From positions 121,475 to 185,474 of the forward strand of contig OZ241963.1 in assembly GCA_965204115.1 (NCBI GenBank): 64,000 nucleotides of DNA, written 5' to 3'. The position numbers and the translations under genes are program-made. Origin of the DNA: Minisyncoccota bacterium (GTDB taxonomy: Bacteria > Patescibacteriota > Minisyncoccia > Phycocordibacterales > JABAAK01). Shown piece after piece: positions 1 through 63,302 of this stretch (position 1 is its first letter; the number at the start of each line of letters is the position of its first letter). The notes beneath the pieces are model-generated. The model was given only the letters and a program-made list of their open reading frames with translations. It did not search any database and had not been told where the DNA came from.

Positions 1-382
<382 letters not shown>

Positions 383-585: not shown

Positions 586-589
586 TTGT

Positions 590-2055: not shown

Positions 2056-2092
2056 GGGGAGGGTGATATAGTCACCCTCCTTTTTTATTTTT
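2056..2092 (+). terminator. Rho-independent terminator, plus-strand oriented (GGGGAGGGTGA-tatag-TCACCCTCC + TTTTTTATTTTT)
   Basis: Perfect GC-rich hairpin followed by a U-run on the + strand only. It lies between divergent/abutting minus-strand genes, which implies a short + strand transcript. Confidence 0.6.
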
Positions 2093-2099
2093 GCCGATA

Positions 2100-2654: not shown

Positions 2655-2718
2655 GTTTTTTAGTATAGCATGAAGCTGCGTTGTAGAGCATGTTGATAAA
2701 GTGCTATAGTATAAGTAT

Positions 2719-3678: not shown

Positions 3679-3684
3679 TGGAAG

Positions 3685-3981: not shown

Positions 3982-4079
3982 TGCTGTTTTATAGGGTATA
4001 CTGGTAGTATATCCCCAAAAAAGTAGATAACCTGTTTACACCTATCAGGAAGGATATATACTTATATTGTACATTCTGT

Positions 4080-5670: not shown

Positions 5671-5865
5671 TGGTTGACCATTTGATTATTTTATTGTACA
5701 GTTATATCACGAACAAAATAGTATGTCAACGGGTTGCTTTTTTTGATTTTTTTGTTATTATATATGTAAAGTACTGAGGGCAAGAAGCCTGATGTATGTT
5801 GCTGTACATTACCCAAGTAAATTAACAATATGGTCGCTTGACGACCCCAAAAGAGGAGGATTGAC

Positions 5866-6372: not shown

Positions 6373-6452
6373 CTGCACATTATGTGAGGGCAGGTAAGTA
6401 TGTTTTTCAACAGTACTGCCTGTCCTTTCTTTTTTGTAGAGGAGATGATGAA

Positions 6453-7076: not shown

Positions 7077-7095
7077 CCATGCGAAGCGGCGAGCG

Positions 7096-7129
7096 ATAAA
7101 AAACGGACTGACTTTCAGTCCGTTTTTTC
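7096..7129. terminator. Bidirectional intrinsic terminator (AAAAAACGGACTGA-ctt-TCAGTCCGTTTTTT)
   Basis: Palindromic hairpin flanked by an A-run and a T-run. Confidence 0.6.
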
Positions 7130-7159
7130 ATTGCTAAAAAATGTTACAATAGTAGGTGT

Positions 7160-9322: not shown

Positions 9323-9329
9323 TGTTTGT

Positions 9330-9764
9330 ATGCAGCAAAGGAGACAGCGCACTGGTGCTACAACTTATGTGCCAAGGAAGAGTGATTATGTCCTGGAAAT
9401 TCGCAGATCGTCTGCCGGACTTGGGCTCTTTACTGAAAGCCCGATACCGCGGGAAAAATTTATTATTGAGTACTATGGTCCGATACTCACCCGTGAACAG
9501 GCAGATGAAAAAGGTGGCAAATATCTTTTTGAAATCAATAGCAGGAAAGTGATAGACGGCTCTCCCCGCTACAACACTGCCCGCTACCTTAACCATTCCT
9601 GCCGACCTAACTGTGAGACCGATGTCGTGAAAGGGAGGGTGTATATCTATGCTAAGCGCAATATTAAGCCTGGCGAAGAACTTACTTATGACTACGGAAA
9701 AGAGTATATTGATGACTTCATCAAGCCATACGGCTGTAAATGCCCAAAATGTCTTGCAGGTTAA
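9330..9764 (+). CDS. SET-domain protein (protein-lysine methyltransferase fold) with post-SET Cys cluster
   Basis: GLGLF...IIEYYG...YNTARYLNHSCRPNCE...ELTYDYG and a C-terminal CKCPKC. Start chosen at MQQRR, just after the smc stop. Confidence 0.7.
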   Translation: MQQRRQRTGATTYVPRKSDYVLEIRRSSAGLGLFTESPIPREKFIIEYYGPILTREQADEKGGKYLFEINSRKVIDGSPRYNTARYLNHSCRPNCETDVVKGRVYIYAKRNIKPGEELTYDYGKEYIDDFIKPYGCKCPKCLAG

Positions 9765-9855
9765 GGTGTTGATAGTAGGGTTATACACATTGTTCACAGG
9801 GTGTGCGTAATGGTTCAAAGACACGCGTTCGGTTGTGCGTGGTACCATACCAATA

Positions 9856-10407
9856 ATGCAGTATGATTTCAGTGCTTTTTCTGAAAGAGAGAAAGAAACA
9901 CTCGCGTGGTTGGGTGATGAATATGCGCAGATACAATCGGGGAGAGTTACCACTGCGCTGCTGGATCGAGTTGCCGTTGCTGCCTATGGCGCGAAGACCG
10001 CATTGAGTCATTGCGCTGCCATTGCGGCGGAGGATCCGAAGACGCTGACGGTAACACCTTACGATCCTACGCTGTTGCCTGAGATAGAAGCGGCACTTCG
10101 GGAGCAGGTGCCGTCTATGAGCGTCGCAGCCGGTGAGACAACAATACGGGTTATTTCTCCTGAGCTAACCGGTGAGAGGCGGGCGGCGTTGGAAAAGATG
10201 GCGCGGGAACGAGCAGAGGAGGCGAAACAATCCCTTCGCGGCGCTCGGGAAAAAGTGATGTCGGACATAAAGCAGCAGAAAGCAGATGGAACGCTTTCAG
10301 AAGATGAAGAGTTTGCCGTTAAAAAGGAATTGCAGGAAAAAATTGACGCGGCAAACAAGGCAATAGAAGAAATGTGTGAGAAAAAGGTGCAAGATACACA
10401 GCTATAG
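9856..10407 (+). CDS. frr: Ribosome recycling factor
   Basis: 184-aa protein with the RRF pattern (MQYDFS...YAQIQSGRVTTALLDRV.V..YG......A.I...D..TL.V.PYD...) and a Lys/Glu-rich C-terminal half. Confidence 0.85.
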   Translation: MQYDFSAFSEREKETLAWLGDEYAQIQSGRVTTALLDRVAVAAYGAKTALSHCAAIAAEDPKTLTVTPYDPTLLPEIEAALREQVPSMSVAAGETTIRVISPELTGERRAALEKMARERAEEAKQSLRGAREKVMSDIKQQKADGTLSEDEEFAVKKELQEKIDAANKAIEEMCEKKVQDTQL

Positions 10408-10410
10408 CGT

Positions 10411-11559
10411 ATGGCAGACAGCATGAATGAAAAAGGAAGAGGCATGCAGCATAGTCTCAATTTTTTGCGAAAGCATGATCTTTATCAGCAGCTTGTGTTG
10501 GGTAGAAGTCAGTCGAAGGCACCCAAGCCATCAAAGAAAACAAGGGATACTTTTTTAAGTTCACTCGGCAATCAGGTGGGCATTGACCTCGGCACCGCAA
10601 CAACAGTGGTGTATGTGAGCGGTAAGGGGGTAGTTATGCGGGAGCCGACCTTGGTCGCGGTGAATAAGCGAACAGACCAGGTTGTCGCCATCGGCAAACG
10701 AGCGCGACAAATGATCGGCAGGACGCCTGAGTATATTGAGGTGATACAGCCGGTACAATTGGGTGTTATCAATGACTATGAAATAACTGAGCAGCTGTTT
10801 GAGCATATCTTCAGAAAAGTGCAGGATGCACTGCCGAAAATTTTCAGCCCTTCAGTGATTATCGGCGTGCCCTGCCGTACTTCTCAGGCGGAAATAAACG
10901 CCGTGCGTGATGCGGTTGTTGACGCAGGTGCGCGGCGAGTGGGTATTGTGTATGAGCCATTTGCTGCTGCGGTAGGTATTGACCTGCCGCTGCTGAGCGA
11001 AACAGCAGTTATGGTTATTGATATCGGCGGCGGCACTAGCGACACGATGATTCTTGCCGGCGGAGAAATCGTCTCTTCAGATAGTATACGAGTTGCCGGT
11101 GATGCGTTTGACTCAGCGATTGTTGAAGGGCTCAAAGAGCGAAAGCATATTGTCATCGGTGAAAGAACCGCAGAGGATCTGAAAGTCGCGATGATGCAAT
11201 CGGCAAAAGAGCAGAAGGTGTTCGGCGTGCAGGGCAGAAGCAGCAGCACCGGATTGCCGCTGGAGATAGAGGTTTCATTTGAAGAAATTGTGCAGATACT
11301 TGAACCCTACCTGGAAAAAATCGCTGAATATATCGGCGCCTTTGTGGGGCAGTCATCCCCGGAGGTGCAGGCGGATTTGAAAAATAATAATATCTATTTT
11401 GTTGGCGGCGGACCGGCGGTACACGCTTTTCCGAAAAAAATCGAAGACATGCTTAACCTGCGCGTTATTGTCCCGGAAAATGCGACCGGACTTGTTGCGC
11501 GAGGCACGGCGGTGATTGCGCAAAATCCTGATAGATATGAAAAATATTTTCTCGCGTAA
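10411..11559 (+). CDS. mreB: Rod shape-determining protein MreB (actin-like ATPase) with a ~50-aa N-terminal extension
   Basis: GIDLGTATTVVYV, IGGGTSD and VGGGP actin-fold motifs. The annotated start may instead be the internal Met at 10444. Confidence 0.85.
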   Translation: MADSMNEKGRGMQHSLNFLRKHDLYQQLVLGRSQSKAPKPSKKTRDTFLSSLGNQVGIDLGTATTVVYVSGKGVVMREPTLVAVNKRTDQVVAIGKRARQMIGRTPEYIEVIQPVQLGVINDYEITEQLFEHIFRKVQDALPKIFSPSVIIGVPCRTSQAEINAVRDAVVDAGARRVGIVYEPFAAAVGIDLPLLSETAVMVIDIGGGTSDTMILAGGEIVSSDSIRVAGDAFDSAIVEGLKERKHIVIGERTAEDLKVAMMQSAKEQKVFGVQGRSSSTGLPLEIEVSFEEIVQILEPYLEKIAEYIGAFVGQSSPEVQADLKNNNIYFVGGGPAVHAFPKKIEDMLNLRVIVPENATGLVARGTAVIAQNPDRYEKYFLA

Positions 11560-11577: not shown

Positions 11578-12375
11578 ATGCAGAAACAAGAACAAACAGG
11601 AGGTAAAGCCGGTTATGTAGTGATGGCATTTCTCCTTATAACCTATATTTTTTTCCCGTCGTGGTATAGAACGATTTCACAGAAAATATTCGGTGTCGTG
11701 TATATGCGTTATGCGCAGTCGTTACAAGACGGCGATATTGATTTTAGGATGCCGTCGATATCGCAAGAGTCCGGGATGTTGCCGGTTTTTGTGATAGCGC
11801 GTCCTCCACAAACACCGTATGACTATGTTCTCACTACCGTGCCGGAACAGTTTCAGGAGGCAAATCAGCAAGAGGGCAGGTGGTATGTGTATGATGATGC
11901 CGGGCAGCCGGTCGGCTATGTGGAGCAATGGCATTCGTCACTCCTGGTGATACCGCTGTTCAGCGCGCCCGGGAGCGATGAATTGTTTTCGGTGGCAGGA
12001 TATGTTTCCCGGGGAATTGGCGACGGCGGGGGCAGTTTTTCATTGCAGGTCCCTATGGATATCGCCGTAACAACGGGCATGCCGATTGTTCATCAGGCGA
12101 CCGGAAAGATACTCAGTGCTGTTGTTGCTATTGAAAATATACCGGAGAAAAATGTGCAGAAAGTCGTCGGCGTCCTGCGAGAGAGCCCTTTGGAAATAGC
12201 AACGCTCTACATGCTGCGCGAACCCAACAATGCGGTACTGCCGGAAGTCGTTGAATCAGCGACTGACATGGTACGAATCCTTGCGGATACTGCGCGGAAA
12301 GAGCAGACAGAAGATCAGGAAACCACCCCTGAGCAGCAGCTGGAAGCGGCGATACCGGAAACATCATCAGAATAA
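11578..12375 (+). CDS. mreC: Rod shape-determining protein MreC
   Basis: N-terminal TM segment, then an MreC-like beta-rich domain. Position immediately after mreB. Confidence 0.65.
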   Translation: MQKQEQTGGKAGYVVMAFLLITYIFFPSWYRTISQKIFGVVYMRYAQSLQDGDIDFRMPSISQESGMLPVFVIARPPQTPYDYVLTTVPEQFQEANQQEGRWYVYDDAGQPVGYVEQWHSSLLVIPLFSAPGSDELFSVAGYVSRGIGDGGGSFSLQVPMDIAVTTGMPIVHQATGKILSAVVAIENIPEKNVQKVVGVLRESPLEIATLYMLREPNNAVLPEVVESATDMVRILADTARKEQTEDQETTPEQQLEAAIPETSSE

Positions 12376-35526: not shown

Positions 35527-35984
35527 TGGCTCAGGTATCCACCGAACACTCCTGCTTCAGGGGCGACACTCCGTATAGCTCCGTTCCTCGCAACAATGAT
35601 GACACTACTTTGTAAAAGATAACGGGTATTTCCCCATAGTTAAGTTGCTCGTAACGGACTATACTCCGTGTCGCGGTTTCTCTGTGTAGTGTTCGGTGTG
35701 TACCGTTCGCTGTGGGTAAGGCGAAGTCGAAGGGTGTTTGGGTAGAAGACGCGCTTTTCGCTGTAGGGGTATTGGGGCGGGGGATGTGCTTTTCGCCGTT
35801 AACGGTGTCGTGTTTTGTGTACCGCAGCCATCATTTCCCCATATATAGTTATTTTGTCAAGCCCTATAGTGCATGAGGGTGCGTGGCGATACTGAGGAAG
35901 AATATCAAATCAATACTCCTTCAGCGCTTCCCGAAGAGGATTAATTTTGGCACAATCACAGGATAGTATGGTAGTATAGAAAGT
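35527..35984. other. 460-bp ORF-free spacer with long-range complementary segments (possible unrecognised ncRNA or degenerate remnant)
   Basis: No ORF of 60 aa or more on either strand. ccaccgaacact (35541) is complementary to agtgttcggtg (35688). Repeated gc(g/t)cttttcgc motifs. Confidence 0.4.
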
Positions 35985-38425: not shown

Positions 38426-38615
38426 CCAATGTAAAGTGTTACATTTTTATGGTGTATAATTTGTAATTCTTTTCGTCCTGCCATGGACTCTTCAGGCGAC
38501 TGGCATCAAGCCGCTAAGAACTGCTACAAATAGGGATCTGTTTATCTGATGTATATAATAGCATATAAATACCTAAATGTCAAACCCCTGTATAGCAGCC
38601 CTTAAAAATACTCCC

Positions 38616-38880
38616 TTTTATCCACAAACCCTTATTTCACGGGCTATTTTAGTGATATACTCAGTATATATAAAAGGCACCTGCCCGCAAGAGGTTGACA
38701 ATTGTGTTGTGTTGTGGTATAGTAATATCAGTGATGGGGATTTAGACAATTCTCTTAAGGTGTATTTGGGAAGCGGCAACCTATTAAATAGAGGGGAAAC
38801 CTCTACATTGTGTATTAAGCGCAATCCACAAGTCACCTTAAGAGAGTTGTATAAATGTATAGTTTGTATGACTTTGGTCT
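38616..38880 (+). promoter_or_regulatory. Copy A of a duplicated promoter-leader cassette: a 137-bp conserved 5' block (incl. TTATCCACA and a sigma70 promoter), a 75-bp unique insert bracketed by a 14-bp inverted repeat, and a 44-bp conserved 3' block
   Basis: Near-identical to 62125-62381 except for the insert. Promoter TTGACA(38695-38700)-17 bp-TATAGT(38718-38723). IR caattctcttaagg (38747-38760) / ccttaagagagttg (38836-38849). Confidence 0.8.
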
Positions 38881-39085
38881 TTTACAAGAAAAAGGGAGGA
38901 CAAGTACATAGTCCACATAACATGATTGTTTCTCAGTCAGGTTATGCGGGCTGTGTACATGAGGTACATGAGCGACCAAAACCTTTAAACTCCTGGATTT
39001 CAACCTACAGCACGCTTTGTCTGCATATGGGATGTATGCAGCGTGTTTGGGGTTGATTTCCGTATTTCCCATAGGAGGGAAACAC

Positions 39086-39658
39086 ATGTCTGTTAAAATT
39101 GCAAAAAAAGTCACGAGCGCTCACGTTGAAAAGTCCATATCTCGCCGCAACCCGTTTGGCCTTCGTGAAAATCCTCTCTCAATCGCGCTCCAAGAGGCGA
39201 TTAATGAGTACAGAGGGGGGTTTGAAGAAGAGCCCTATGAATTTTGGAAGCTCAGAGGGGCTAATGTTTCCTATGACGAGGACGGGAGAATGGCACTGGT
39301 TGTCCAGGACGGCTCCTATGTTCGGGGAAACACGTACCGGACATTGGCCTATTTCACCCCGAGAGCTATTGAGCTCTATCATGAGTGGGTTGCCCAAAAA
39401 GGGCGCCTCGGCAGATTTGCCGCTCAACGCACTGGGTGGACGCAACCTGGTGTTGAAGGCCCGTCACTGCCGTCTTGCGTCATCGTAGTCCAAGATGCTG
39501 ATAAGTTTTTGGAAACATCTTGGGACGCGGGCACGATTGATATCGTCTCCGTGAAAGACTATGAAAATGAGCAACTTCTCGCCGAGAAACGGGAGGAGTT
39601 GCGGGAGTGCTGGCGGAACATCCGTCGGCTGAAGAAGGAAATCAGGAAGATCTCTTAA
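39086..39658 (+). CDS. Hypothetical protein (family A/B, copy A), 190 aa, cytoplasmic
   Basis: SD GGAGGGA 7 nt before the ATG. Shares ENP[LV] and G..V.[YI]D[ED][DN].[RK][MI].L...[DE]G motifs with the copy-B protein. Charged helical C-terminus. Confidence 0.6.
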   Translation: MSVKIAKKVTSAHVEKSISRRNPFGLRENPLSIALQEAINEYRGGFEEEPYEFWKLRGANVSYDEDGRMALVVQDGSYVRGNTYRTLAYFTPRAIELYHEWVAQKGRLGRFAAQRTGWTQPGVEGPSLPSCVIVVQDADKFLETSWDAGTIDIVSVKDYENEQLLAEKREELRECWRNIRRLKKEIRKIS

Positions 39659-39747: not shown

Positions 39748-39815
39748 GAGGGCAGCCAATGGCTGCCCTCTACATATTTTATAGACACAGCACCACACAG
39801 GTGCTGTTTTTTGTT
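39748..39815 (+). terminator. Two tandem intrinsic terminators after gene A
   Basis: GAGGGCAGCC-aatg-GCTGCCCTC + TACATATTTTA, then CAGCACC-acaca-GGTGCTG + TTTTTTGTTTT. Confidence 0.65.
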
Positions 39816-39870
39816 TTCAAACAACAGATGAAAAGCAGGGCATACTGGGGGTGGTATAAGAAATAGTACG

Positions 39871-48703: not shown

Positions 48704-49162
48704 ATGGCAAATACCAACGAAAATCATATCACCGCCGATGAGAAATCGGAAATTGAGGCGGAATTAAAAAAACTTATAGAGACAAAGCGACCGGAGGTGA
48801 TTGAGGAGCTGCGTGTTGCGCGTGCGTATGGTGACTTGAGTGAAAATGCGGAGTATGACGCTGCTCGCAAAAAACAGGGTATCATTGAGGGTCGTATCAA
48901 TGAAATAGAGGCCATTTTGAAAACTGCGATTGTGGTAGAGGAAGATCATGGTAGGGATGTCGTTACGATCGGCAATTCAGTTACGGTGAAAGTGGAGGGC
49001 GAAGGGAAAAAGGTGTACGACATCGGCGTGGAAGGGAATGGACTGGAGGTATCCTCACACTCACCAATAGCGGAAGCGTTACTGGGTAAACAAAAAGGGG
49101 ACGCCGTGATGGCTAAGCTGCCGAAAGGCGCTGTGGAGATGACTATTCAGAGTATCAAGTGA
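48704..49162 (+). CDS. greA: Transcription elongation factor GreA
   Basis: N-terminal coiled-coil with the conserved acidic tip (ARAYGDLSENAEYDAA). C-terminal FKBP-like domain. Confidence 0.9.
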   Translation: MANTNENHITADEKSEIEAELKKLIETKRPEVIEELRVARAYGDLSENAEYDAARKKQGIIEGRINEIEAILKTAIVVEEDHGRDVVTIGNSVTVKVEGEGKKVYDIGVEGNGLEVSSHSPIAEALLGKQKGDAVMAKLPKGAVEMTIQSIK

Positions 49163-49221
49163 CGCGTGTGATACAGCAAACCTGTTTTAAACGGGTGTAT
49201 ACTACAGATAGTTTGTTTGCT

Positions 49222-49953
49222 ATGAAAGAAAAAAGATCTATACAACGAAGACGCGTGTCGCATAATACTGCGCGGCAAGAAGGGGTATTCAAAAGGCCGG
49301 GAATGCTGCGTTCTTTTGTTTATTCATTTGATATTTTTTTAGAGTTTTTACGAGGATTTAAATTTATATCCCACTTCGGCAAGGCGATTACTTTTTTTGG
49401 TTCTGCGCGGGAGGCATTGCCCGAACGATACTACACGGATTGCGAAGAGTTGGCAGCGCGTATGAGTACGAACGGCTTCGCTGTTATCACCGGAGGGAGC
49501 GGGGGCATTATGGAGGCGGCGAATAGGGGTGCGAATAGGGTAAATGGGGAATCAGTCGGCGTGAATATCCGCATTCCGAATGAGCAGGGGTATAACAATT
49601 TTTTGAAGCATTTTCAGACATTTAAATATCTTTTTTCAAGAAAAACTATTCTCTCCTGCGCTTCTGAGGTGTATGTCTTTTTCCCGGGAGGATTCGGCAC
49701 CCTGGATGAAGCATTTGAAATGCTGACCTTGGTTCAGATTGATTTGATAGAGCGGGTGCCGATTATCTTATATGGCAAAGAATACTGGGAACCTCTTGTG
49801 TCTTTTTTTCAAAAAGATTTGGTGACAACCTATAAAACAATATCTAAAGAAGACCTGGATTTGTTTGTGGTAATGGATTCTGTTGATGAGGCAGAGCACT
49901 ATATTCGATCGCTGGATTTGTCGCAAGTTCGTGCGTGTCGACTGCAGCGGTAG
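49222..49953 (+). CDS. LOG-family (TIGR00730, Rossmann-fold nucleotide-binding) protein
   Basis: ITFFGSAR...AVITGGSGGIMEAANRGA...PGGFGTLDEAFEMLTLVQ motifs of the LOG/lysine-decarboxylase-like family. Confidence 0.8.
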   Translation: MKEKRSIQRRRVSHNTARQEGVFKRPGMLRSFVYSFDIFLEFLRGFKFISHFGKAITFFGSAREALPERYYTDCEELAARMSTNGFAVITGGSGGIMEAANRGANRVNGESVGVNIRIPNEQGYNNFLKHFQTFKYLFSRKTILSCASEVYVFFPGGFGTLDEAFEMLTLVQIDLIERVPIILYGKEYWEPLVSFFQKDLVTTYKTISKEDLDLFVVMDSVDEAEHYIRSLDLSQVRACRLQR

Positions 49954-50004
49954 GAAGGCATCAACTCTCAGTTCGGGTATAGTGCTGGTGAGTAAGCGGA
50001 ATAC

Positions 50005-50390
50005 TATGTCGCACAATATACCTTTTGCGACATTGTGCAAAGCACAATGTCGCAAAAGGTCTCGTAGATTATGCGACAAATAAATTGTCGCATAATCTAC
50101 GGCCAAAGGTTCCGTATATTGTGCAACAAGCAAGTTGTCGCACGATATACGGCTAAACCCTCCATTAAAGTGTTGGCTTTGCACAATGTCGCAAAAGGTT
50201 TTGAATATTATACGACAAACAAGTTGTCGTATAATATTCAACCACCTACCAATCAAATAACATAGGTGGAGGACGCAAGCGGTATGTCGCAAAAGGTTCC
50301 GCACACTGTGCGAAAAGCAGCAGGTTTTTATAATCTATGACTTCCCTGCTGAAGTATAAATTTTGTGGCATGTCGCACAATATTTGACCT
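50005..50390. repeat. Array of long inverted repeats / half-sites with a TGCGACAA...TTGTCGCA core (at least 4 full palindromes and ~12 half-sites)
   Basis: Perfect palindromes at 50021-50059 (18-bp arms), 50064-50100 (16-bp arms) and 50201-50241 (18-bp arms), plus an imperfect one at 50114-50150. ATGTCGCAAAAGGT recurs three times and ATGTCGCACAATAT twice. Confidence 0.85.
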
Positions 50391-50394
50391 CTTT

Positions 50395-50613
50395 TTACCA
50401 AAAGATAATCTGCAGGAGGTTCTTTTTTGGCGGCTGGCAATCACGATGAGGATTTTCTGCAGTTTGCACGCAGTCGTAGAAATCCCATGATTCACCTTTG
50501 CCCACCAGGCGTGGCCATACGAAAATTTGTGCTGCTATGAAAAGAACACAGAAAAGAAAGTTGTACAGCAGAATGAATTTTAAAAAGACGATAAATTTAT
50601 TTTTCCTGGCCAT
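50395..50613 (-). CDS. Possible small single-TM membrane protein downstream of glyS
   Basis: 72-aa ORF from an internal Met (MARKNKFIVFLKFILLYNFLFCVLFIAAQIFVW...), 27 nt after the glyS stop. No SD identified. Confidence 0.3.
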   Translation of the reverse strand: MARKNKFIVFLKFILLYNFLFCVLFIAAQIFVWPRLVGKGESWDFYDCVQTAENPHRDCQPPKKNLLQIIFW

Positions 50614-50641
50614 CAAAGGCAGTATACCGCTTGATTTTTTG

Positions 50642-52006
50642 CTATCGTGCGGCGTCTTGTATATACTTCGGCAACTCTTGTATAGACATGCGCTCCTGCC
50701 GCATTGAATCCCGCTCACGGACGGTTACTGTCTCATCCTTTAGCGTGTCATAATCAATGGTTATCGCGTATGGTGTGCCGATCTCATCCGCCCGGCGGTA
50801 GCGCTTCCCGATTGCACCGGTTTCGTCATAGTAGACACTATAGCGTTCCCCTGCCAACTTGGCATACACTTCTTTGGCTTTTTCAGGATGGCCATCTTTA
50901 CGCATCAACGGCAATACTGCGACCGTCATCGGCGCGAGAGACGGATGCAACCGCAGCAGCACTCGCTCAGTGCCGTCTTCAAGTGTCTCTTTATCATACG
51001 CATCACAGAGTACCGCCATAAACAGCCGGCCGACACCGATAGAGGTTTCTATAATGTTCGGTACGATATGCTCGTTTGTCTCCTGATCAAAGTAGGTGAG
51101 TTTCTGCCCCGAGTGCTCAGTGTGCTGAGTCAGATCATAGTTTCCCCGATCGTGAATGCCTTCCAGCTCTTTCCAGCCGAATGGATATTCATACTCAATA
51201 TCAACCGCGGCTTTTGCGTAGAACACCAACCGCTCGTGCGGTGTTACCCGCAAGTGTTCTTCCTGAATACCGATTGCTTTAAGCGCCTCCAGCCGTAGTG
51301 ATAAAAATTCATCAAAATGCCGCTTGCTTTCCTTCTGGTGAAAATACTGCATCTCCATCTGTTCAAACTCCCGGGTGCGGAATAAAAACTGTCGCGGAGA
51401 GATTTCGTTACGGAACGCTTTCCCGATCTGTGCGATACCGAAGGGCAGTGGCGGGTGCATAGTATCCACCACCTGTTTAAAGTTGACATAAATACCCTGG
51501 CAGGTTTCACCGCGGAGGTAGGTAACCTCATCTCCCTCAAAAGTGCCTAAATTTGAAGTAACCAGCAGATTTTGAAACTCCGGATCGGATAAGTCATTCG
51601 GATCGCACCCCGCAACTTTTAAATTTGCTTTATGCTCCGCAAACACTTTGCGAAATTCCTCAATGCTCATCCGTTCATCAGCAGATACGCCGATTTCTTC
51701 AAGGAGGTGGTCCGCGCGGAACCGCTTTCCGGTCTTCTTGCAGGCCGTTACCGGGTCAGCAAACCCTTTCGTATGTCCGGACGCTTCCCAGATTTTCGGA
51801 TGCATCGTAATACCGGAATCCAATCCGAAAATGTCCGGGCGAGTACGCACCATGGTGTGCCACCATCGTTGCTTCAGGTTATTCGCCAGCTCAACCCCGA
51901 GCGGTCCGTAGTCATACACTCCCGCAAATCCGTCATAAATCTCAGAAGACGGGAAAACAAACCCCCGCCGTTTTGCCAGCTGTAGTATCTCGTCAAGGGT
52001 AGCCAT
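50642..52006 (-). CDS. glyQS: Glycine--tRNA ligase (alpha2 homodimeric GlyQS type)
   Basis: N-terminus MATLDEILQLAKRRGFVFPSSEIYDG, class-II motifs, C-terminal anticodon-binding domain. Confidence 0.9.
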   Translation of the reverse strand: MATLDEILQLAKRRGFVFPSSEIYDGFAGVYDYGPLGVELANNLKQRWWHTMVRTRPDIFGLDSGITMHPKIWEASGHTKGFADPVTACKKTGKRFRADHLLEEIGVSADERMSIEEFRKVFAEHKANLKVAGCDPNDLSDPEFQNLLVTSNLGTFEGDEVTYLRGETCQGIYVNFKQVVDTMHPPLPFGIAQIGKAFRNEISPRQFLFRTREFEQMEMQYFHQKESKRHFDEFLSLRLEALKAIGIQEEHLRVTPHERLVFYAKAAVDIEYEYPFGWKELEGIHDRGNYDLTQHTEHSGQKLTYFDQETNEHIVPNIIETSIGVGRLFMAVLCDAYDKETLEDGTERVLLRLHPSLAPMTVAVLPLMRKDGHPEKAKEVYAKLAGERYSVYYDETGAIGKRYRRADEIGTPYAITIDYDTLKDETVTVRERDSMRQERMSIQELPKYIQDAAR

Positions 52007-55842: not shown

Positions 55843-57039
55843 CTACACTGATGAGGATATAGAGTATATCGGGATGATGACTGAGCCGATGAGCAGTCCG
55901 ACACCTAATCCGAGGAAAACAATGATGGTCGGCTGGATAAGGTCAAGCATGGTATCAATAGTATTGCGGAGCTGTTTTTCATAGATGTCGGCGATGGTCT
56001 CAAGAATGTGCTGGAGTTCCCCCGCCTCTTCTCCCACCCGCACAATCTGTGCGACGCTGTTGCCGATATATTCACGCCTCGCCATGGTGTCGGAGAGCTT
56101 GACTCCTTGCTGTACTTCAGCACCCATTTCACGGACAACCTCTCGGTAGACGGTGTTGACCATGCTGCGCTGTAAGATTTGCAGTGAAGAGACAATGGGG
56201 ACACCGCTGCCGAGCATAACGCTGAGGTTGCGGCAAAACCGCACCAGGAAAAACTCTCTAAACATATTTCTTACTAACGGTATATTAACCAAAAAATTAT
56301 CATAGGCTTTTCTACCGTCTTCAGTGCGAACATAGTACAAGAATCCGATGCTGGTGCCGGCGAGCAGGATGAGGATGAGAACGATGCTCTCTTTAAGAAA
56401 ATCACTGGTACCGATGACAATCTTTGTAATGAGCGGCAATTCAGCGCCCGACTGTGTCAAAATGACGGAAATTTGCGGAATGACTGTCACCATAATAAGA
56501 CCCATTACGAGAAAAAACATCACTATGACAAAGGTCGGGTAGGTTAGTGCTTTGCGCATCCTGGCGTTTGTGTCGACACTGCGTTCCAAGTGGTCGGCAA
56601 GGTATGAAAATGACCGTGACAATGTTCCCGACTGCTCACCAATCGCGACAATGGAAACAAAAAACTCTCCGAAAACATCCTGATGTTTCAGCAGGGCTTT
56701 CTCAACGGACAACCCCTGCTCAACACTCTTGGCGATATCAACGAGGACACTCTGAAAATATTTACTCTGCATATTCTCAGACACCAAAGTAAATGCCCGA
56801 AGCGCTGATATCTCCGCTTCAAATAGTGTGGCGATTTGACGGGAAAAGATAACCAAATCTTTTTTGCGCACCCGTTGAAAAATGTTCATTTCCAGAACAT
56901 TGCTTGATTCGTGCTCTAAAGAAAGCACTGTATACCCGCGATCGAGCAGGAGGCTGATGGCATTGGTGCGGCTCAGTGCCTCAAGCTGCCCGGACACCTC
57001 TCTTCCTTCTTTGTCTACAACGGTATATAAAAAAAGCAT
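55843..57039 (-). CDS. pilC: Type IV pilus / T2SS platform protein PilC/GspF
   Basis: 398 aa, three TM segments, duplicated GspF domain architecture. Confidence 0.8.
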   Translation of the reverse strand: MLFLYTVVDKEGREVSGQLEALSRTNAISLLLDRGYTVLSLEHESSNVLEMNIFQRVRKKDLVIFSRQIATLFEAEISALRAFTLVSENMQSKYFQSVLVDIAKSVEQGLSVEKALLKHQDVFGEFFVSIVAIGEQSGTLSRSFSYLADHLERSVDTNARMRKALTYPTFVIVMFFLVMGLIMVTVIPQISVILTQSGAELPLITKIVIGTSDFLKESIVLILILLAGTSIGFLYYVRTEDGRKAYDNFLVNIPLVRNMFREFFLVRFCRNLSVMLGSGVPIVSSLQILQRSMVNTVYREVVREMGAEVQQGVKLSDTMARREYIGNSVAQIVRVGEEAGELQHILETIADIYEKQLRNTIDTMLDLIQPTIIVFLGLGVGLLIGSVIIPIYSISSSV

Positions 57040-57055
57040 ATGGTTACTCTAACGA

Positions 57056-58141
57056 TTATAAATAGCGCGACAGTGTCTGTTTATTGGAGGCATGTAGCGT
57101 CGCGACCTCAAGCGCCACTTCATTTCGCTTCACTAAGTCAGCAAGGGACTGCTCCAAGCTGATCATGCCCTCCTCTTTGCCGGTCTGAATGGCTGATTTG
57201 ATGCTCTCTACTCTGCTCTCCCGGATGAGGTTGGCAATCGCTTCATTGTTAATCAGTACCTCACACGCCGGTATCAGCCCGCCGGATACCCGCGGCAACA
57301 ATCGCACAGCGCACACGCCGAGCAGCGAGCCGGCGAGCTGGTGTGCTATCTGTCGCTGCTGCTCGTGTGGAAATGAATCAAGAATACGATGCACCGCACC
57401 GAATGCGGAGCTTGAATGTACCGTTGATAGTACCAAATGCCCGACCTCCGCGGCGGTCATAACCGCCTGCATGGTTTCAACCTGGCGCATTTCACCGATC
57501 ATCAAAATATCAGCGTCTGTTCGCAGCGATGTATCAAGCGCGGCGCGAAACGATGTTGCATCCCACGGGATTTCCTGCTGTGTAATGATTGATTTTCGGT
57601 CATTAAAAATAAATTCAATAGGGTCTTCAATGGTGAGGATGTGTTTGCGCATTACCTCATTGCAGTGATTGACCATTGCCGCGAGTGTTGTGGACTTTCC
57701 GTTGCCCGTCGCGCCCACAATTAAAAACAGCCCGTCCGGCTCGTGCATCACCTCTTTCAATACCGGCGGAAGGTTCAGCTCTTCCAAAGTCCGTGCTGTT
57801 TCCTGCACCAGCCGCATCGTTACGGCGATGTTCCCCATCTCATAGTACACCGTAACCCGGAAATTCACTTTCTTGTCCTGCTGCGTAGTGTGCTTGTAAC
57901 TGAACATCAGGTATTTCTGCTCCTGCAATACCGTCTCCGCATTTTCCATACGCGAACCGGCGATGAGTCGAAAAAATTCTTCTGTGTCTTTCGGCGTAAG
58001 AACTTCCTTCTGAATAAACGGTACTAATTCCCGCTGCACCCGAAACAGCGGTTTTGTGCCGGCAATCATATGCACATCAGATCCACCGCGCAAAACCAAG
58101 GTGTCAATGTAATCCTGCAATTCATTGTTATACTCCATCAC
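57056..58141 (-). CDS. pilT: Type IV pilus ATPase (PilT/PilB family; size fits the PilT retraction ATPase)
   Basis: Walker A GATGNGKST, Asp box and His box (GHLVLSTVHS), Walker B LMIGEMR. 361 aa. Confidence 0.8.
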   Translation of the reverse strand: MMEYNNELQDYIDTLVLRGGSDVHMIAGTKPLFRVQRELVPFIQKEVLTPKDTEEFFRLIAGSRMENAETVLQEQKYLMFSYKHTTQQDKKVNFRVTVYYEMGNIAVTMRLVQETARTLEELNLPPVLKEVMHEPDGLFLIVGATGNGKSTTLAAMVNHCNEVMRKHILTIEDPIEFIFNDRKSIITQQEIPWDATSFRAALDTSLRTDADILMIGEMRQVETMQAVMTAAEVGHLVLSTVHSSSAFGAVHRILDSFPHEQQRQIAHQLAGSLLGVCAVRLLPRVSGGLIPACEVLINNEAIANLIRESRVESIKSAIQTGKEEGMISLEQSLADLVKRNEVALEVATLHASNKQTLSRYL

Positions 58142-58190
58142 CCCCAGTATGACACATTCTTATCCTATGAAGCATGCTATCAACATATCG

Positions 58191-59360
58191 CTATGCCTTC
58201 TTGGCGATTGGTAACAACGCACGGATACGGCGTACTAACGCCCGCGCTGCTTTCCGTGCTGTTGTGGGCAGGACACCGATGCGGAGTGATTTTTCATTGG
58301 ATTGGTTACAGGCACTCCCTGTAGAAACTGCAAACCCTTTCGTATCCAGCAATGTGGCGAGGTATGCGTGGTTTGTATCAGGAAACGAAACATAGAGTAG
58401 ATGCGGCGCGAGCTTTTTCCAATCAGAGGTTTTCACCTCTTTCGCCGCTTTTTCAATGCCGTGTATGTGGGTGTCGGGCATCCGGCGACCGAACTCCTCG
58501 GCAATGGTGTTGCGCGCAAGACGCGCCTGTGCGGAGAGTTGCTTTCGCTGCTTGCGGGTTTCATCAAGGGCGATTGCAAAGCCGTAGAGCAGCGCAACCG
58601 ACGGTGTCCCCGGGCGCATATCCCATAGCGAGTGCTCTCCCTGCAGCCCCGGGTAGAGATGCGCCTTGTGCAGCAGCAGCGCACCGGCACCCTGCGGGCC
58701 GAAGCTCTTTGTGCCGTCTATCGTAACTGCGTCAACACCCAAAGAAACCGGCGAACAGGTGAGGTAAGCAGTCGCCTGTGCCGCGTCAGTGTGGATGAAG
58801 AGGGTTGGGTGTTTCTCCCGCGCGGCAGCGGCAATGTCTGCGACGGGCTGCACCACCCCATGCTGGCTGTTTACCATCTGCAGAGAAATAGCAATGGTGT
58901 TTTTGCGAAGATGCTGTGTGATGTCTGACGGCGTAAACTGCCGACCGTTTTTCGGTGTGGCAACCGTGCACTGCACACCAAGTGTTTGAAAATAGGCGAG
59001 CGGTCTATACAGCGACCCATGCTCCTCATTGCCGACAATGACATGCATAGCGTCAATAGGAATGCCCTGACGACGGGCATAGAGTACTGCCGTCCGCAAC
59101 GCGAGCAAATTTGCCTCAGTTGCTCCGGAAGTAAAGATCACATTGTCCGGCTTCACCTGATACCCCCGTGCCAGCATTGTTCGCGCCAGATCAAGGTATT
59201 CTTTCGCGTTCCGGCCCGGACTATGTGCCGCGATTGGGTTGCCTACACCGTGCTTTGTCTGCACCTGCAGTACACACTGCATCGCATGCGCAGCCTTCGG
59301 GTGTATCGGTGTGAAAGACCCGGAATCAAAGTAGTGTCGTTTTTTGAAAAGAGAAACCAT
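58191..59360 (-). CDS. Cysteine desulfurase / class V aminotransferase (NifS/IscS-like)
   Basis: PLP-lysine context (IDGTKSFGPQGAGAL), conserved TSGATEAN, catalytic Cys near the C-terminus (SGSACN). Confidence 0.8.
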   Translation of the reverse strand: MVSLFKKRHYFDSGSFTPIHPKAAHAMQCVLQVQTKHGVGNPIAAHSPGRNAKEYLDLARTMLARGYQVKPDNVIFTSGATEANLLALRTAVLYARRQGIPIDAMHVIVGNEEHGSLYRPLAYFQTLGVQCTVATPKNGRQFTPSDITQHLRKNTIAISLQMVNSQHGVVQPVADIAAAAREKHPTLFIHTDAAQATAYLTCSPVSLGVDAVTIDGTKSFGPQGAGALLLHKAHLYPGLQGEHSLWDMRPGTPSVALLYGFAIALDETRKQRKQLSAQARLARNTIAEEFGRRMPDTHIHGIEKAAKEVKTSDWKKLAPHLLYVSFPDTNHAYLATLLDTKGFAVSTGSACNQSNEKSLRIGVLPTTARKAARALVRRIRALLPIAKKA

Positions 59361-59474
59361 TATACCGCCAGCATACCACGGCAAAAACAGTGCGTTATTA
59401 CAATCTCCACAGCACCTGCCGGCAGGCATGCTCAGCGGTATGGTTGTTCACATTCGTCGTGCAAAAAATACTTT

Positions 59475-59690
59475 TTATTTGCGATTCATCATACCGACCA
59501 GTACAACAAGCGCAGCGATACCGACGATAGTGTAGAGCACAAAGCTCACCTCCGGTGTCTCCAGGAGACCGTACCCAATCCACTCAACGAGGTCAAAATG
59601 CGAACCGAACAGATTCGTCACACCGACCAATCCCCAGTTCAAACCACCGACGATGGTCAACACCTTTGCGATTTTGTAATATACATTCAT
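59475..59690 (-). CDS. DUF378-family small membrane protein
   Basis: 71 aa, two TM helices, the family-typical LNWGLVG motif. Confidence 0.65.
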   Translation of the reverse strand: MNVYYKIAKVLTIVGGLNWGLVGVTNLFGSHFDLVEWIGYGLLETPEVSFVLYTIVGIAALVVLVGMMNRK

Positions 59691-59816
59691 ATAAGGATAA
59701 AAGATCTTGTTAATAAACGCACAGATTGCTCCGTACAGAAACAGTATGCCACAGTGCTACGCGCATTACACCGGATGTGTATATGATCAATGGGACCATT
59801 GAGCGTAACGACAGGT

Positions 59817-60782
59817 CTAAAGTGTCTGCTCACCCTGAAACGAGCTTCGCAGCATTTTTTCTGCCGCTTCTGTCTCGGTCAGCGTCCGCTCCTTCTGCTC
59901 TTTCTGCGGGAAGTATCGGTGCCACAGGAGCAACACAGACGGTGCGAAGAAAAGTGACGAGTAGGTTCCGGCCACTACACCGGCAAACAGTGCAATGCTG
60001 AACCACTGCGTTGCTGACACCAGTATAAACAGCAGCACGAGCGGAGTAACCGTGGAGACCGAAGTATACAGCGAGCGTCGCAAACTGGTTCGCACGCCGT
60101 AATCAACGGTTTCGGCAAAGGGTTCCTTCTTCCCCTTCTCACGATTGTTTCGTAGACGATCGCGCATACGATCAAAGACCACGATCGTGTCGTTGATAGA
60201 GTATCCGAGCGTTGCCAGGAGCGCAGTCACAAACAGCGTGTCAATCGTCGCTGTCGTGAATGGTGCGATAATCGCAAATAATCCCAACGGAATGATTGAA
60301 TCGTGTACCAGCGCGAAAGTCGCTGCGACCCCGTACTTCCACGAAGCAACCGGACGGGATGCCTTCCTGAACACAAAAGAGATATAGATGATGATGATGC
60401 CGACCGCGACCAGCAGCGCGATTATTGCCTTGTACAGCAACTCCCGACTGATAGACGGAGAAAATGATTGGTACTCTTTCACCTCAAACGCTCCGATTTC
60501 CTCCGTAATATCGGCTTTGAAAGTACTGTACTCCTCAGCGTCTAATGAGCGCGTAGTGAAGGAGTATTCGGTATCGGACATGCGATGTGTTTCCGCCTCA
60601 AGCCCCGCATCACTCAGGCGACCTGCCACCCCCTGCTGCGCCTCCGTGAACGCCACCGTCAGCTCAGCGCTCCCGCTGAACTCCGGCGCGATGTTCGGCC
60701 CGATAACAAAGGTGCATACCACGGACAAAATAATCAGCCCGATTCCGATGATTGTGTGTATTTTTGCGTGTTTACTTACCAT
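59817..60782 (-). CDS. secF: Protein translocase subunit SecF
   Basis: 6-TM SecF topology with the conserved D..I..DRMRDRLRNN region. Confidence 0.85.
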   Translation of the reverse strand: MVSKHAKIHTIIGIGLIILSVVCTFVIGPNIAPEFSGSAELTVAFTEAQQGVAGRLSDAGLEAETHRMSDTEYSFTTRSLDAEEYSTFKADITEEIGAFEVKEYQSFSPSISRELLYKAIIALLVAVGIIIIYISFVFRKASRPVASWKYGVAATFALVHDSIIPLGLFAIIAPFTTATIDTLFVTALLATLGYSINDTIVVFDRMRDRLRNNREKGKKEPFAETVDYGVRTSLRRSLYTSVSTVTPLVLLFILVSATQWFSIALFAGVVAGTYSSLFFAPSVLLLWHRYFPQKEQKERTLTETEAAEKMLRSSFQGEQTL

Positions 60783-60791
60783 ACGATATTC

Positions 60792-62075
60792 TTAGTGTAT
60801 ATACCACCGCTGCAGCCGCTTGCTGAACAGCCGGGACGATGACCGCAAAAATAGCCGCGTTAGGACATACGCGGAAAACATACTGATGAAGACACCGATG
60901 ATGAAGGCGAAAGCGAACCCTTTGATGATAGAGGTGCCGAACCAAAAGAGCAGGAAAGCAATGATGATGCTCGTCAGGTTTGCGTCCCGAATTGCCACCC
61001 ACGCCCGCGCGCATCCGCGCTCTATTGCCGTCGCACGCGACTCCCCTCTTTTAATCTCTTCTCGCATGCGTTCAAAAATGAGTACATTCGCATCAACTGC
61101 AAACCCAATAGACATAATAAAGCCGGACAGCCCCGCCGCTGTCAGCACAATCGGCACCCCCTTGAATATCGTCAGCACCATCACGCAGTACACCGTCAGC
61201 GCCACCACCGCAACCGCCCCGACCGAACGATACACCACCAAAAAGAGGAGTGCGATGAGCAGTAGTGCGATGAGCCCGGCAAACACACTGTTCTCTGACA
61301 CCTCCGCGCCGAGTGACGGATTTACCGTCAATGTTTCAGCCAGCTCAATCGGCAGCGGCAATGCCCCGAGGTTTAGCCCGTCCACCAACTCCTTTGCCGA
61401 GTCCAGGGTGAAGTTCCCCTGTATCTGCGTTGTACCGCCGGTGATTGGCTCATTGATAACCGGTGAGGAGATAACACTCCCGTCAAGAAAAATTATCAGC
61501 CGCTGCCCGACATTCGCCCGCGTCACCTCCCCGAATATCTTGCCGCCCTCGCCGTTAAAGTGCAGTACCACTATCGGCTCGTTCGTCAGCGTCCCCCCGA
61601 CACCCGGCAAAAACTGCACCTCCGCAGAAGTGATGTGTGTCCCCTGCAATCCGGTGTCTATGATCTCTGCCGACTCACCGGCCAGTATTTTAAATTCAAG
61701 ATACGGTGTCTCCCCGATTGCCCGAGTCGCCTCATCGGTATCCGTCACCCCCGGTAGCTCAACAACCAGCCGATGCGCCGCCGCATTAGCGCCGATCCCC
61801 AGCCCCGTCACCGTGTATACATTCGGCTCAGACACTCCGAGCGCATTTACCCGCTGCTCAATCACCCGCTGCAGCGCGGACATCCGCCTCGATATCTCCC
61901 CCTCCGGCACTTCCGAGACATCAGCGGTGTAGGTTACCTGGGTGCCACCGGCAAGATCAAGCCCGAACGAAAACGGAAATCGCCCCACATCATACACATA
62001 CAATACCGCCAATGCGACCGTAACGGCAACAACGCCCAAACTGATAACCCACGGTGAAACAACCCTTTTTTTCAT
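60792..62075 (-). CDS. secD: Protein translocase subunit SecD
   Basis: N-terminal TM, large periplasmic domain, 5 C-terminal TM segments (LDLAGGTQVTY...). Directly upstream of secF. Confidence 0.85.
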   Translation of the reverse strand: MKKRVVSPWVISLGVVAVTVALAVLYVYDVGRFPFSFGLDLAGGTQVTYTADVSEVPEGEISRRMSALQRVIEQRVNALGVSEPNVYTVTGLGIGANAAAHRLVVELPGVTDTDEATRAIGETPYLEFKILAGESAEIIDTGLQGTHITSAEVQFLPGVGGTLTNEPIVVLHFNGEGGKIFGEVTRANVGQRLIIFLDGSVISSPVINEPITGGTTQIQGNFTLDSAKELVDGLNLGALPLPIELAETLTVNPSLGAEVSENSVFAGLIALLLIALLFLVVYRSVGAVAVVALTVYCVMVLTIFKGVPIVLTAAGLSGFIMSIGFAVDANVLIFERMREEIKRGESRATAIERGCARAWVAIRDANLTSIIIAFLLFWFGTSIIKGFAFAFIIGVFISMFSAYVLTRLFLRSSSRLFSKRLQRWYIH

Positions 62076-62124
62076 ATTACTCTGTTATTGTATCACAAGA
62101 AAAAAGTGCTTACTGCAGAAGCGA

Positions 62125-62381
62125 TTTTATCCACAAACCCTTATTTCACGGGTTATTTTAGTGGTATATTAGGTATAAGTAAAAAGGCACCAATCCATAA
62201 GGGGTTGACAATTGTGTTGTGTTGTGGTATAGTAATATCAGTGATGGGGGTTTAGACAATTCTCTTAAGGGTGTTCCGCGGAGAACACGTTAAAAAAATA
62301 ATGTATAATTTGTGTTTCTTATCTGTATAGGATACATCCTTAAGAGAGTTGTATAAATGTATAGTTTGTATGACTTTGGTC
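62125..62381 (+). promoter_or_regulatory. Copy B of the duplicated promoter-leader cassette (conserved 5' block, 67-bp unique insert, identical 44-bp 3' block)
   Basis: TTATCCACA at 62127-62135. TTGACA(62205-62210)-17 bp-TATAGT(62228-62233). IR caattctcttaagg (62257-62270) / ccttaagagagttg (62338-62351). 110 of 111 nt identical to copy A across promoter + 5' transcript + 3' block. Confidence 0.8.
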
Positions 62382-62617
62382 ATTAGCAATTAAAAAAGAA
62401 GAAAGGGAAAGGATTGGAAGGTGTGTATACTATCTCTCCCATAACAGTATTGCTCAATGCAGTAGTGTTGTGGGAGGGATGGCTGAATAGCTCTGTTGCT
62501 TATTCAAAATTCACACCATCCCATGTGGACTCCATCGATTATTGGGCGTCCAAATTCCGGGACCACTAAGGCGAGATGCCGGTCCCACATTCCCGCGGGA
62601 TGCGGGGAGGGAATATC

Positions 62618-63166
62618 ATGAAAAAATTCAAAAGATACTATCAAGAGGCCTTTGTCTCTCAATTCAGCTTTCTGTTTCACGGGGAAAACCCCGTTGCGAA
62701 CGGATGGCTTGTTGAAGAGGTGCGGGTTTCTCGCGTCGACGAAGCTCTCCTTGAGAAGACCCCAATGTACGACGGGGCGACAGGGTCCCGTGTCGGCATC
62801 GACGACAATGAGAAAATTTTCTTGTTTGACAAAGAGGGTAATCTTCTTACTGAGGTTGAGCAAGCCGGATACTGCAGACACAATGAGTCTCACTGTGACG
62901 ACGAGGAGTGGGACGGAGAGGCGGTCGGTGAGGCGCTGCTTCGTGTCGATGCCAAAGATGTCTACTATGTTGTCACGGTCCACACGGGGTACAGAATCCG
63001 TGACCACCACAGTGTTGGTGGGTATAGCGTCACGCTATACAAACCCCCGAAAGGGTTTTCACTCCCTGAGTGGGTCAAAGAGAGGCGTCGCCGCGCTGCC
63101 CAGGCGATCTCCGCGGAGATCGCGGAGATCGACGCCGAAGCTCAGCAAGGGTGTGTCTCCCGGTAA
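62618..63166 (+). CDS. Hypothetical protein (family A/B, copy B), 182 aa, cytoplasmic
   Basis: SD GGGAGGGAA before the ATG. Remote paralog of the 39086-39658 product, with a shared motif order and a charged C-terminal helix. Confidence 0.6.
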   Translation: MKKFKRYYQEAFVSQFSFLFHGENPVANGWLVEEVRVSRVDEALLEKTPMYDGATGSRVGIDDNEKIFLFDKEGNLLTEVEQAGYCRHNESHCDDEEWDGEAVGEALLRVDAKDVYYVVTVHTGYRIRDHHSVGGYSVTLYKPPKGFSLPEWVKERRRRAAQAISAEIAEIDAEAQQGCVSR

Positions 63167-63302
63167 ACCTAACTAACAAGATCAAACCAGATGCGTGTTT
63201 CATTCTCGTTATTAACGATTGAAGATGCAAACATGCGATGTGCTACCAACACGCGTCTGGTTAAGTAACTTCTTAATTAACTAATGGAGGCAATAGCTAA
63301 AG

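Follow-up and report, generated by a model that had tools for sequence, protein, structure and literature searches.

How do two unrelated orphan genes on one bacterial chromosome come to carry the same promoter and the same long leader? The question is raised by a 64,000-nucleotide (nt) stretch of contig OZ241963.1 of a Minisyncoccota bacterium, referred to below as the window, in which a non-coding module of ~260–360 nt, which combines a strong promoter with a long, folded RNA leader, is found twice. Copy A, which heads gene A, lies between the genes for a lytic transglycosylase and arfB/obg, and copy B, which heads gene B, adjoins the start of secD (60792–62075, minus strand). On a modest balance of probability, we read the module as a reusable non-coding 'expression head' for accessory genes that are swapped in behind it, within one Kaiserbacteria-like lineage of the candidate phyla radiation (CPR); the nearest named relatives are Candidatus Kaiserbacteria, Paceibacterota.

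The repeated module and its copies in relatives

A blastn search with positions 62001–62700 against the window aligned 62125–62274 of copy B with 38616–38763 of copy A (89.3% identity over 150 nt, E = 1.4e-49), and 62338–62381 with 38836–38879 (44 of 44 positions identical, E = 7e-18). This resemblance far exceeds chance and makes copy B a real repeat of copy A. A sequence-only reading of the window had proposed such a promoter-plus-leader module, repeated in front of unrelated accessory genes and set beside the secD start in one case and beside the lytic transglycosylase in the other, and the present analysis bears it out on each of these points. The promoter that it had noticed in copy B is the best site of its region (Table 1). 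Together with its spacer, which contains (TTGTG)x3, this promoter is identical in copy A (38695–38723), in copy B and in a third copy from a related locus, L089, and the position of the −10 element predicts a transcript start near A62240, 7 nt past it. The promoter scan called no separate promoter between the RNA domain and gene A or gene B. An extended −10-like sequence that had been pointed out within the module, TGTATAAT, is indeed present at 62302–62309; as an internal promoter it was rejected, because it lacks a −35 partner and is not called by the scan. We regard the assignment of the promoter and its transcription unit as very probably correct.

The conserved block upstream of the promoter contains a small hairpin, AACCC...GGGTT (62136–62154), followed by ATTTT, which on its sequence looks like a terminator or an insulator. 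A DnaA-box-like 9-mer at 62127–62135, TTATCCACA, occurs three times in the window against 0.44 expected, and two of the three occurrences are the module copies themselves; we consider it too weak to interpret. No open reading frame (ORF) is kept across the copies. The short upstream ORF MYSLYDFG (AUG at 62357) was rejected, as a 6-nt indel and substitutions destroy it in L089, and so was an ORF of 159 amino acids (aa) spanning copy A, which is shortened to 28 aa in L089 and broken in copy B.

Relatives of the locus (L089, L091/L092 and L094–L096) were found by a protein search with the transglycosylase. The proteins of L089 are 81–99% identical to those of the window, most of them 91–99%, and this locus holds the third module copy (11990–12251, plus the following hairpin) at the site orthologous to copy A. 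Behind it, genes of 244 aa and 87 aa stand in place of gene A; the flanks share 93% identity with those of the window, and the two sequences are homologous again from the terminator ahead of arfB (window 39778 = L089 13731). L091/L092 are more diverged, with a transglycosylase 82% identical to that of the window. The orthologous site in L092 is empty, a hammerhead unit described below being directly followed by arfB, so that the module-plus-gene unit of locus A is absent there, which supports the sequence-only reading on this point. On the other side, secD of L091 is preceded by adk-map and lacks the module; the GTDB relatives (65–68% identity) are too distant for their secD synteny to inform. 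L094–L096 (~80% identity) carry other accessory genes downstream of the transglycosylase. In L096, positions 8395–8637 (minus strand) correspond, in diverged form, to the upstream hairpin and the promoter of the module and to no other part of it (nhmmer E = 8.8e-5): a perfect 7-base-pair (bp) hairpin is followed by ATTTT and by a promoter GGGGCTTGACA-17-TATATT, and then come a different but equally closed 5′ leader and a lipoprotein-like orphan gene.

Beyond these loci the module was not encountered. In the window, nhmmer profiles and a covariance model returned no copy besides A and B; the count stands at two in the 64 kb of the window, one in 21.7 kb of L089 and none in the other loci searched. 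No further copy was found in ~1 Mb of related loci or in large public collections; exact-pattern scans with four module segments gave no match in IMG/VR viral contigs, GTDB species genomes or JGI metagenomes, and blastn with the module gave none in phage and plasmid collections. No Rfam family covers copy A or copy B, the only scores being those of miRNA-like hairpins at chance level and below the gathering threshold.

The three copies differ from one another block by block. In the left flank and the stretch before the −35 element L089 resembles copy A (93–94%; 94% for the stretch before −35, where comparisons with copy B give 69–72%), while over the promoter and the 5′ arm it is copy B and L089 that agree (99%). 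The right block is 100% identical between copies A and B and 83% in L089, where a 6-nt indel sets it apart from the two window copies. The leader hairpin of L089 again resembles that of copy B. As judged from these comparisons, the module is lineage-restricted and keeps its locus when the cargo is exchanged, and each copy is a mosaic of the others.

These observations do not agree with the earlier proposal that module and cargo gene travel as one unit, since L089 keeps the module at the copy A locus with other cargo. No transposition hallmark was found, and neither the ~44 ORFs scanned in the window nor the precomputed Pfam annotation for L089 and L091 yielded an integrase, transposase or recombinase. 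There are no terminal inverted repeats at the ends of the A/B/L089 homology (TTTTATCCACAAACCC... / ...TATGACTTTGGTC), the sole inverted repeat being internal, and, as had been noted for the two window copies, no target-site duplication: no direct repeat lies at the A, B or L089 boundaries, nor does one appear in comparison with the empty L092 site. The same facts bear on a miniature mobile element of the MITE (miniature inverted-repeat transposable element) or Correia type, which would insert upstream of genes, bring an outward promoter and have its transposase-recognition ends in the inverted repeat. Such an element would account for a repeated intergenic unit with a promoter, for an inverted repeat that enters the transcript as a long hairpin and for the varying presence of the module between relatives. 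However, the inverted repeat is internal, and the ends of the homology (TTTTATCC... / ...TTTGGTC) are neither inverted repeats nor bounded by a target duplication; 242 kb of related loci contain no copy, against two in the 64 kb of the window; no transposase is found among the window ORFs scanned; and the promoter lies upstream of the repeat instead of being created at its end. We consider a mobile element of this kind highly improbable.

The folded leader

The conserved transcribed part of the module corresponds to exactly one closed RNA domain of 142–150 nt, which extends from the predicted transcript start to position 62381 in copy B and yields z-scores of −6.0, −5.6 and −4.4 across the three copies. 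Its basal helix, P1, pairs 62240–62254 with 62365–62381, that is, the 5′ end with the last 13–17 nt of the right block, and sequence conservation stops at the last base of this helix (GGTC, 62381). Every substitution in P1 is a G.U to A-U exchange, or the reverse, in the consensus fold. Helix P2 is formed by the bracketing inverted repeat that the sequence-only reading had described, ACAATTCTCTTAAGG (62256–62270) and CCTTAAGAGAGTTGT (62338–62352), which as RNA gives 15 perfect bp with one U.G pair and extends to ~19 bp in copy B.

At the tip of P2 lies an apical region (62271–62337), previously described as a variable insert unrelated to that of copy A. The hairpin reported within it, GTGTTC-CGCG-GAGAACAC, is present at 62271–62288, and the inserts of copies A and B cannot in fact be aligned (~49% identity). 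The insert of copy B is, however, 72% identical to that of L089, with the apical motif AAUGUAUAAUUUGU as its best-conserved part; it is homologous between these two copies and therefore not an idiosyncratic or unrelated cassette.

The domain is followed by a purine-rich linker and by a second hairpin, hairpin VI (Table 1), with a free energy of −38 kcal/mol and a z-score of −8.8. All three arm substitutions that distinguish hairpin VI in L089 keep or improve pairing. The corresponding hairpin of copy A matches it in its three-tier shape and 5-nt loop but not in sequence, and folds of whole leaders give z-scores near −8. The ~240-nt leader upstream of gene B had been called unique; this does not apply to 62430–62482, which recurs as the L089 hairpin, nor to 62559–62608, a motif shared with gene B homologues, and the leader is unique in part only. 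Since the G.U pairs of the leader helices lie on the coding strand, it is the transcript (or the top DNA strand) that folds, and not the bottom strand. We hold, with good confidence, that the leader is structured at the RNA level. The window encodes a canonical RNase III (Ribonuclease_3 and dsrm domains, 4957–5670), so that helices of about 20 bp or more, P2 and hairpin VI, occur together with a host RNase III, as would be expected of leaders processed by this enzyme.

A discrete closed domain with sharp conservation boundaries behind a strong promoter could also be an independent small RNA or a cis- or trans-acting regulatory RNA, with a constant scaffold, a variable apical part for target or ligand, and downstream genes that are incidental or reached by read-through. 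A short U-run after P1 in copy A and L089 (GGUCUUUU) and the good conservation of AAUGUAUAAUUUGU within the insert between copy B and L089 would fit such an RNA. Yet no G+C-rich terminator stem precedes the U-run, copy B lacks the U-run altogether, and the scan finds no separate promoter from which gene A or gene B could be transcribed independently of the domain. Moreover, the rod-like shape has no conserved junction or loop typical of ligand-binding RNAs, it belongs to no Rfam family, and the module did not stand out in a scan for targets of the hammerhead RNA next to copy A. A free-standing RNA thus seems quite unlikely.

A plain segmental duplication of a promoter region, without special function and kept patchily identical by gene conversion, is a further alternative. 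Two intragenomic copies are known, the module is as similar between the window and L089 as its flanks are, and a mosaic pattern is what conversion produces. Against this stands the distribution of the identity: the promoter and the two strands of both P1 and P2 make up the identical blocks, which stop exactly where the helix does, whereas divergence falls in the apical region and ahead of the −35 element. Substitutions respect the pairing, and the diverged L096 version shares the architecture. We therefore judge a duplication without function unlikely.

Table 1. Coordinates of the module copies, their leader elements and their cargo in the window.
Feature	Position	Strand	Remarks
Upstream conserved block, copy B	62125–62165	+	95% identity with copy A, 90% with L089
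Sigma-70-type promoter, copy B	62205–62233	+	TTGACA-17-TATAGT, extended −10 TG; scan score 11/12, best site of the region
Closed 5′ RNA domain, copy B	62240–62381	+	P1, P2 and apical region; same closed fold in three copies
Purine-rich, A-rich linker	62382–62429	+	Weak similarity between A, B and L089: AAAAAGGGAGGA / AGAAAGGGAAAGGA / AAAGAAGGAAG
Leader hairpin VI	62430–62482	+	~24 bp, one mismatch, four G.U pairs, 5-nt loop: CUCUCCCAUAACAG...UGUUGUGGGAGGG
Proximal leader of gene B	62559–62608	+	Hairpins 62559–62586 and 62590–62608; the second overlaps the Shine-Dalgarno sequence
Gene B, cargo of copy B	62618–63166	+	182 aa; good Shine-Dalgarno sequence
'Bracket' hairpin after gene B	63185–63262	+	14-bp closing stem, variable interior
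Module copy A	38616–38879	+	Promoter 38695–38723, RNA domain 38730–38879, P2 arms 38746–38760 / 38836–38850
Structural analogue of hairpin VI, copy A	38905–38957	+	−30.5 kcal/mol, z −5.7
Gene A, cargo of copy A	39086–39658	+	190 aa; true orphan
Terminators after gene A	39748–39770 and 39787–39817		

Cargo genes and genomic setting

The two cargo genes of the window are not related: as distant homologues they were rejected with an hhalign probability of 1%. The sole match of gene A among 5.8 billion proteins is itself, and an exhaustive phmmer search added marginal matches only. Gene B, whose position had been correctly given, has 25 homologues (50–63% identity, all hypothetical) in Patescibacteria and Omnitrophota, in four unrelated genomic contexts. 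It has no match in Pfam, PHROG or the defence-system collection PADLOC and no relatives in IMG/VR, and its AlphaFold2 model (mean predicted local distance difference test score of 80) matches no fold in the PDB. The gene adjoining gene B was considered as a conserved partner and rejected. A partial ORF further downstream (63823 to the end), which had been described as helix-turn-helix-like, has no Pfam match. Locus B is covered on its promoter side only, its right-hand end lying beyond position 64000.

Two hairpins directly upstream of gene B recur upstream of members of its family across phyla (window 62559–62608, L008 9834–9880, L007 ~930–985). Compensatory changes affect 6 of 16 pairs, in three sequences only, and the loops read GCGAGAUGC and GRGAU. 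This motif belongs to the cargo and not to the module; from its sequence conservation, it is possibly a new cis-regulatory leader for the gene B orphan family. Behind gene B, the bracket hairpin is homologous to positions 13216–13290 of L089, where it follows the first cargo gene; the genes flanking it are unrelated. Its closing stem, CCAGAYGCGYGUUU...AAMRCGCGUCUGG, displays compensatory and G.U changes, and AACGAUUGAA is conserved inside it.

Two further homologues of gene B stand in settings of their own. In L007 (Logan SRR22388270, 16.5 kb; positions 1–11513) the homologue heads ~22 small orphan ORFs on the same strand, and in at least nine intergenic spacers there is a long hairpin, 5′-CUCCCA[R]A...U[G]UGGGAG-3′, whose purine.G mismatch is conserved; hairpin VI of the window belongs to this type. 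These hairpins could be processing sites or recombination sites. In L008, a JGI contig, a solitary homologue is flanked by an 18-nt direct repeat, TTGGTGCCACCC(A/T)CTTTC, the downstream copy of which has an inverted partner 142 nt away (9406–9427, 10548–10565 and 10703–10724 in all). These repeats could be insertion scars or another bracket hairpin.

Such arrangements call to mind an integron-like platform, in which the module promoter would take the part of Pc, and a site-specific recombinase would exchange cassettes at P2, hairpin VI and the bracket hairpins, as its folded sites. At one locus the cargo directly behind a conserved promoter has been replaced, the bracket hairpins that come after the first cargo gene in locus B of the window and in L089 are homologous, the L007 array places a CUCCCA...UGGGAG hairpin before at least nine of its ~22 small same-strand orphan ORFs, and gene B is found solitary in four unrelated contexts, with the direct repeat around the L008 homologue. 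Nevertheless, there is no tyrosine or other recombinase in the ~44 window ORFs scanned, nor near L089 and L091; RYYYAAC/GTTRRRY cores are absent, and the outer stems CUCCCAUAAC/GUUGUGGGAG and ACAAUUCUC/GAGAGUUGU give no core match. Integron integrases recombine the bottom strand of folded sites, where the coding-strand G.U pairs of the leader would turn into A.C mismatches. Each cargo gene has a leader of its own, and homologous recombination, acting on the module copies and the conserved flanks, suffices for the swap. An integron-like platform therefore appears very unlikely. A wider version would be a cassette-exchange system specific to Patescibacteria, a fixed promoter-plus-hairpin platform that captures and expresses small orphan genes circulating among Patescibacteria and Omnitrophota. 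Its visible parts would be the module, hairpin VI, the CUCCCA[R]A...U[G]UGGGAG hairpins of L007 and the bracket hairpins; by analogy it would be integron-like in function, with different sites and a putative recombinase. We mention it as a long shot.

The immediate neighbours of the module are core genes (L25, transglycosylase, arfB, obg and secDF), and the remaining window genes that were scanned all have core functions. The space downstream of the lytic transglycosylase is a hot spot for accessory genes in the clade (L089 11731–13823; L091/L092 11677–19156; also in L094, L095 and L096, downstream of 11617–11644), and contains orphan genes, a zeta toxin, VWA/AAA_5 genes, methyltransferases and an Mrr nuclease; the transglycosylase of L096 is directly followed by a tRNA gene. 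On the side of copy B, the block secD-secF-DUF378-cysteine desulfurase-PilT-T2SSF (window 55843–62075, L091 2651–8842) has been rearranged. In L091 it lies directly upstream of L25/transglycosylase on the same strand, whereas in the window it is ~20 kb away and inverted, and one end of the rearrangement is the secD start beside copy B. Gene B and the two ORFs that follow it are oriented against the local gene direction.

Divergent from copy A, on the minus strand, lies a candidate type III hammerhead ribozyme (window 38459–38531, L089 11840–11897, L092 18890–18939) with its own promoter (38583–38555) and terminator (38427–38370). All core nucleotides are present (CUGAAGA ... GAAA), with a predicted cut after A38515; the minimum-energy fold gives a three-way junction, and stem I has a change between G.U and A-U between genomes. 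Rfam RF00008 scores are 23 bits for the window, 34 bits (E = 0.0017) for L089 and 26 bits for L092, all below the gathering threshold of 48.5. The unit occurs in L092 without the module and is therefore independent of it. A 12-mer shared by the two, TGTATAATTTGT (38453 and 62302), led us to consider the tail of the hammerhead RNA as targeting the module; this was rejected, since the module was not top-ranked in a window-wide duplex scan.

Two features elsewhere in the window are recorded here. Around 49000–51000 the GC skew changes sign, and gene orientation switches from plus to minus at ~50 kb, as would fit a replication terminus (or origin) lying within this stretch. Between the genes for tRNA-Thr and L25 (35530–35985), ~450 nt lack an ORF, and 35690–35867 are 81% identical in L089.

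A proposed expression head and its known counterparts

In the reading we favour, the small terminator-like hairpin may insulate the unit from upstream transcription, and a near-consensus sigma-70 promoter with an extended −10 element would drive transcription. The transcript would begin, within a few bases of its 5′ end, with a self-closing RNA domain of 142–150 nt that comprises P1, the perfect P2 and a tolerant apical region; the purine-rich linker and the second hairpin of ~24 bp would follow, and then each cargo gene's own short leader and ribosome-binding site. The long double-stranded helices would act on the mRNA, either as RNase III substrates or as a 5′-terminal block to 5′-end-dependent decay, and in both cases would set the level or the processing of otherwise unrelated transcripts. 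Such a role of the leader in processing or stability, suggested by analogy with known leaders, is put forward tentatively. As to its spread, the copies would trade both segments and cargo through homologous recombination or gene conversion, with the module as one homology arm, and not by transposition. We prefer recombination because the identity is mosaic, the cargo is swapped, and terminal repeats, target duplications and recombinases are lacking at the boundaries and among the ORFs inspected.

Several points weigh against this expression-head reading. The transcript start, the read-through into the genes and any cleavage are predictions. Constraint is deduced from an intragenomic mosaic, and patchy gene conversion could yield such a mosaic without selection; identity between the window and L089 is no higher in the module (93%) than in the flanks. 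P1 is rich in A-U and G.U pairs and can form in two alternative registers. In neither P1 nor P2 is there a pair altered on both sides, the changes being one-sided exchanges between G.U and A-U, and the support from covariation is thin because three copies are known, two of which are orthologous or have exchanged sequence.

Members of the CPR, or Patescibacteria, have tiny genomes, and little is known of their gene regulation or of how they acquire and express new genes. The locus offers a concrete and testable handle on both gene expression and gene gain in these bacteria. A shared head with swapped cargo suggests a simple recombination route by which accessory genes are plugged into a ready-made expression context. 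The analysis also supplies several candidate RNA elements from a lineage that has hardly been studied, namely the 145-nt leader domain, the 24-bp array hairpin type, the gene B leader motif and a probable hammerhead gene. Should the helices turn out to act as RNase III or stability elements, future CPR genetics could also use the module as an expression part.

Among known systems, the Correia elements of Neisseria (CREE/NEMIS) come close in outline. They are described as generating promoters and binding RNase III (PMC2649163). Like them, the module has ~100 nt bracketed by an inverted repeat that would lie in 5′ leaders as a long hairpin, together with a promoter and a putative link to RNase III binding or cleavage. 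Unlike Correia elements and MITEs, it has neither terminal inverted repeats nor a target duplication, its copies in the loci searched are very few, its promoter is a separate upstream element, and no sequence similarity was detected.

An integron, with Pc and attI ahead of attC cassettes, likewise sets a fixed promoter before exchangeable orphan genes and has hairpins between the genes. The module differs from it in that neither an integrase nor core-site motifs were found, the hairpins fold on the coding strand and the cargo comes with its own leaders.

The morons of lambdoid phages are autonomous promoter-gene-terminator units inserted between conserved genes. Locus A has the same layout, with its own promoter (38695–38723) and terminators (39748–39817) between conserved neighbours and an empty counterpart in L092. 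It lies, however, on a bacterial chromosome with no phage genes nearby, its cargo has no PHROG hits, and the phage collections searched contain no match. To our knowledge, morons do not share one conserved head among different cargos, whereas the different cargos of the module share a conserved head of 260–360 nt. In function the module resembles a moron and also a Correia-type element, yet it lacks features that define these two and the integron.

Leaders that are processed by RNase III or stabilised by a 5′ stem-loop are known from E. coli pnp and rnc, the early intercistronic sites of T7, ompA, and B. subtilis aprE. The module has no sequence or Rfam relationship with these leaders, its domain of ~145 nt is much longer, and cleavage or stabilisation would here be predicted effects. 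What it has in common with them are perfect or near-perfect helices of ~20 bp in the 5′ untranslated region, one of them at the predicted 5′ end, in a host that encodes RNase III.

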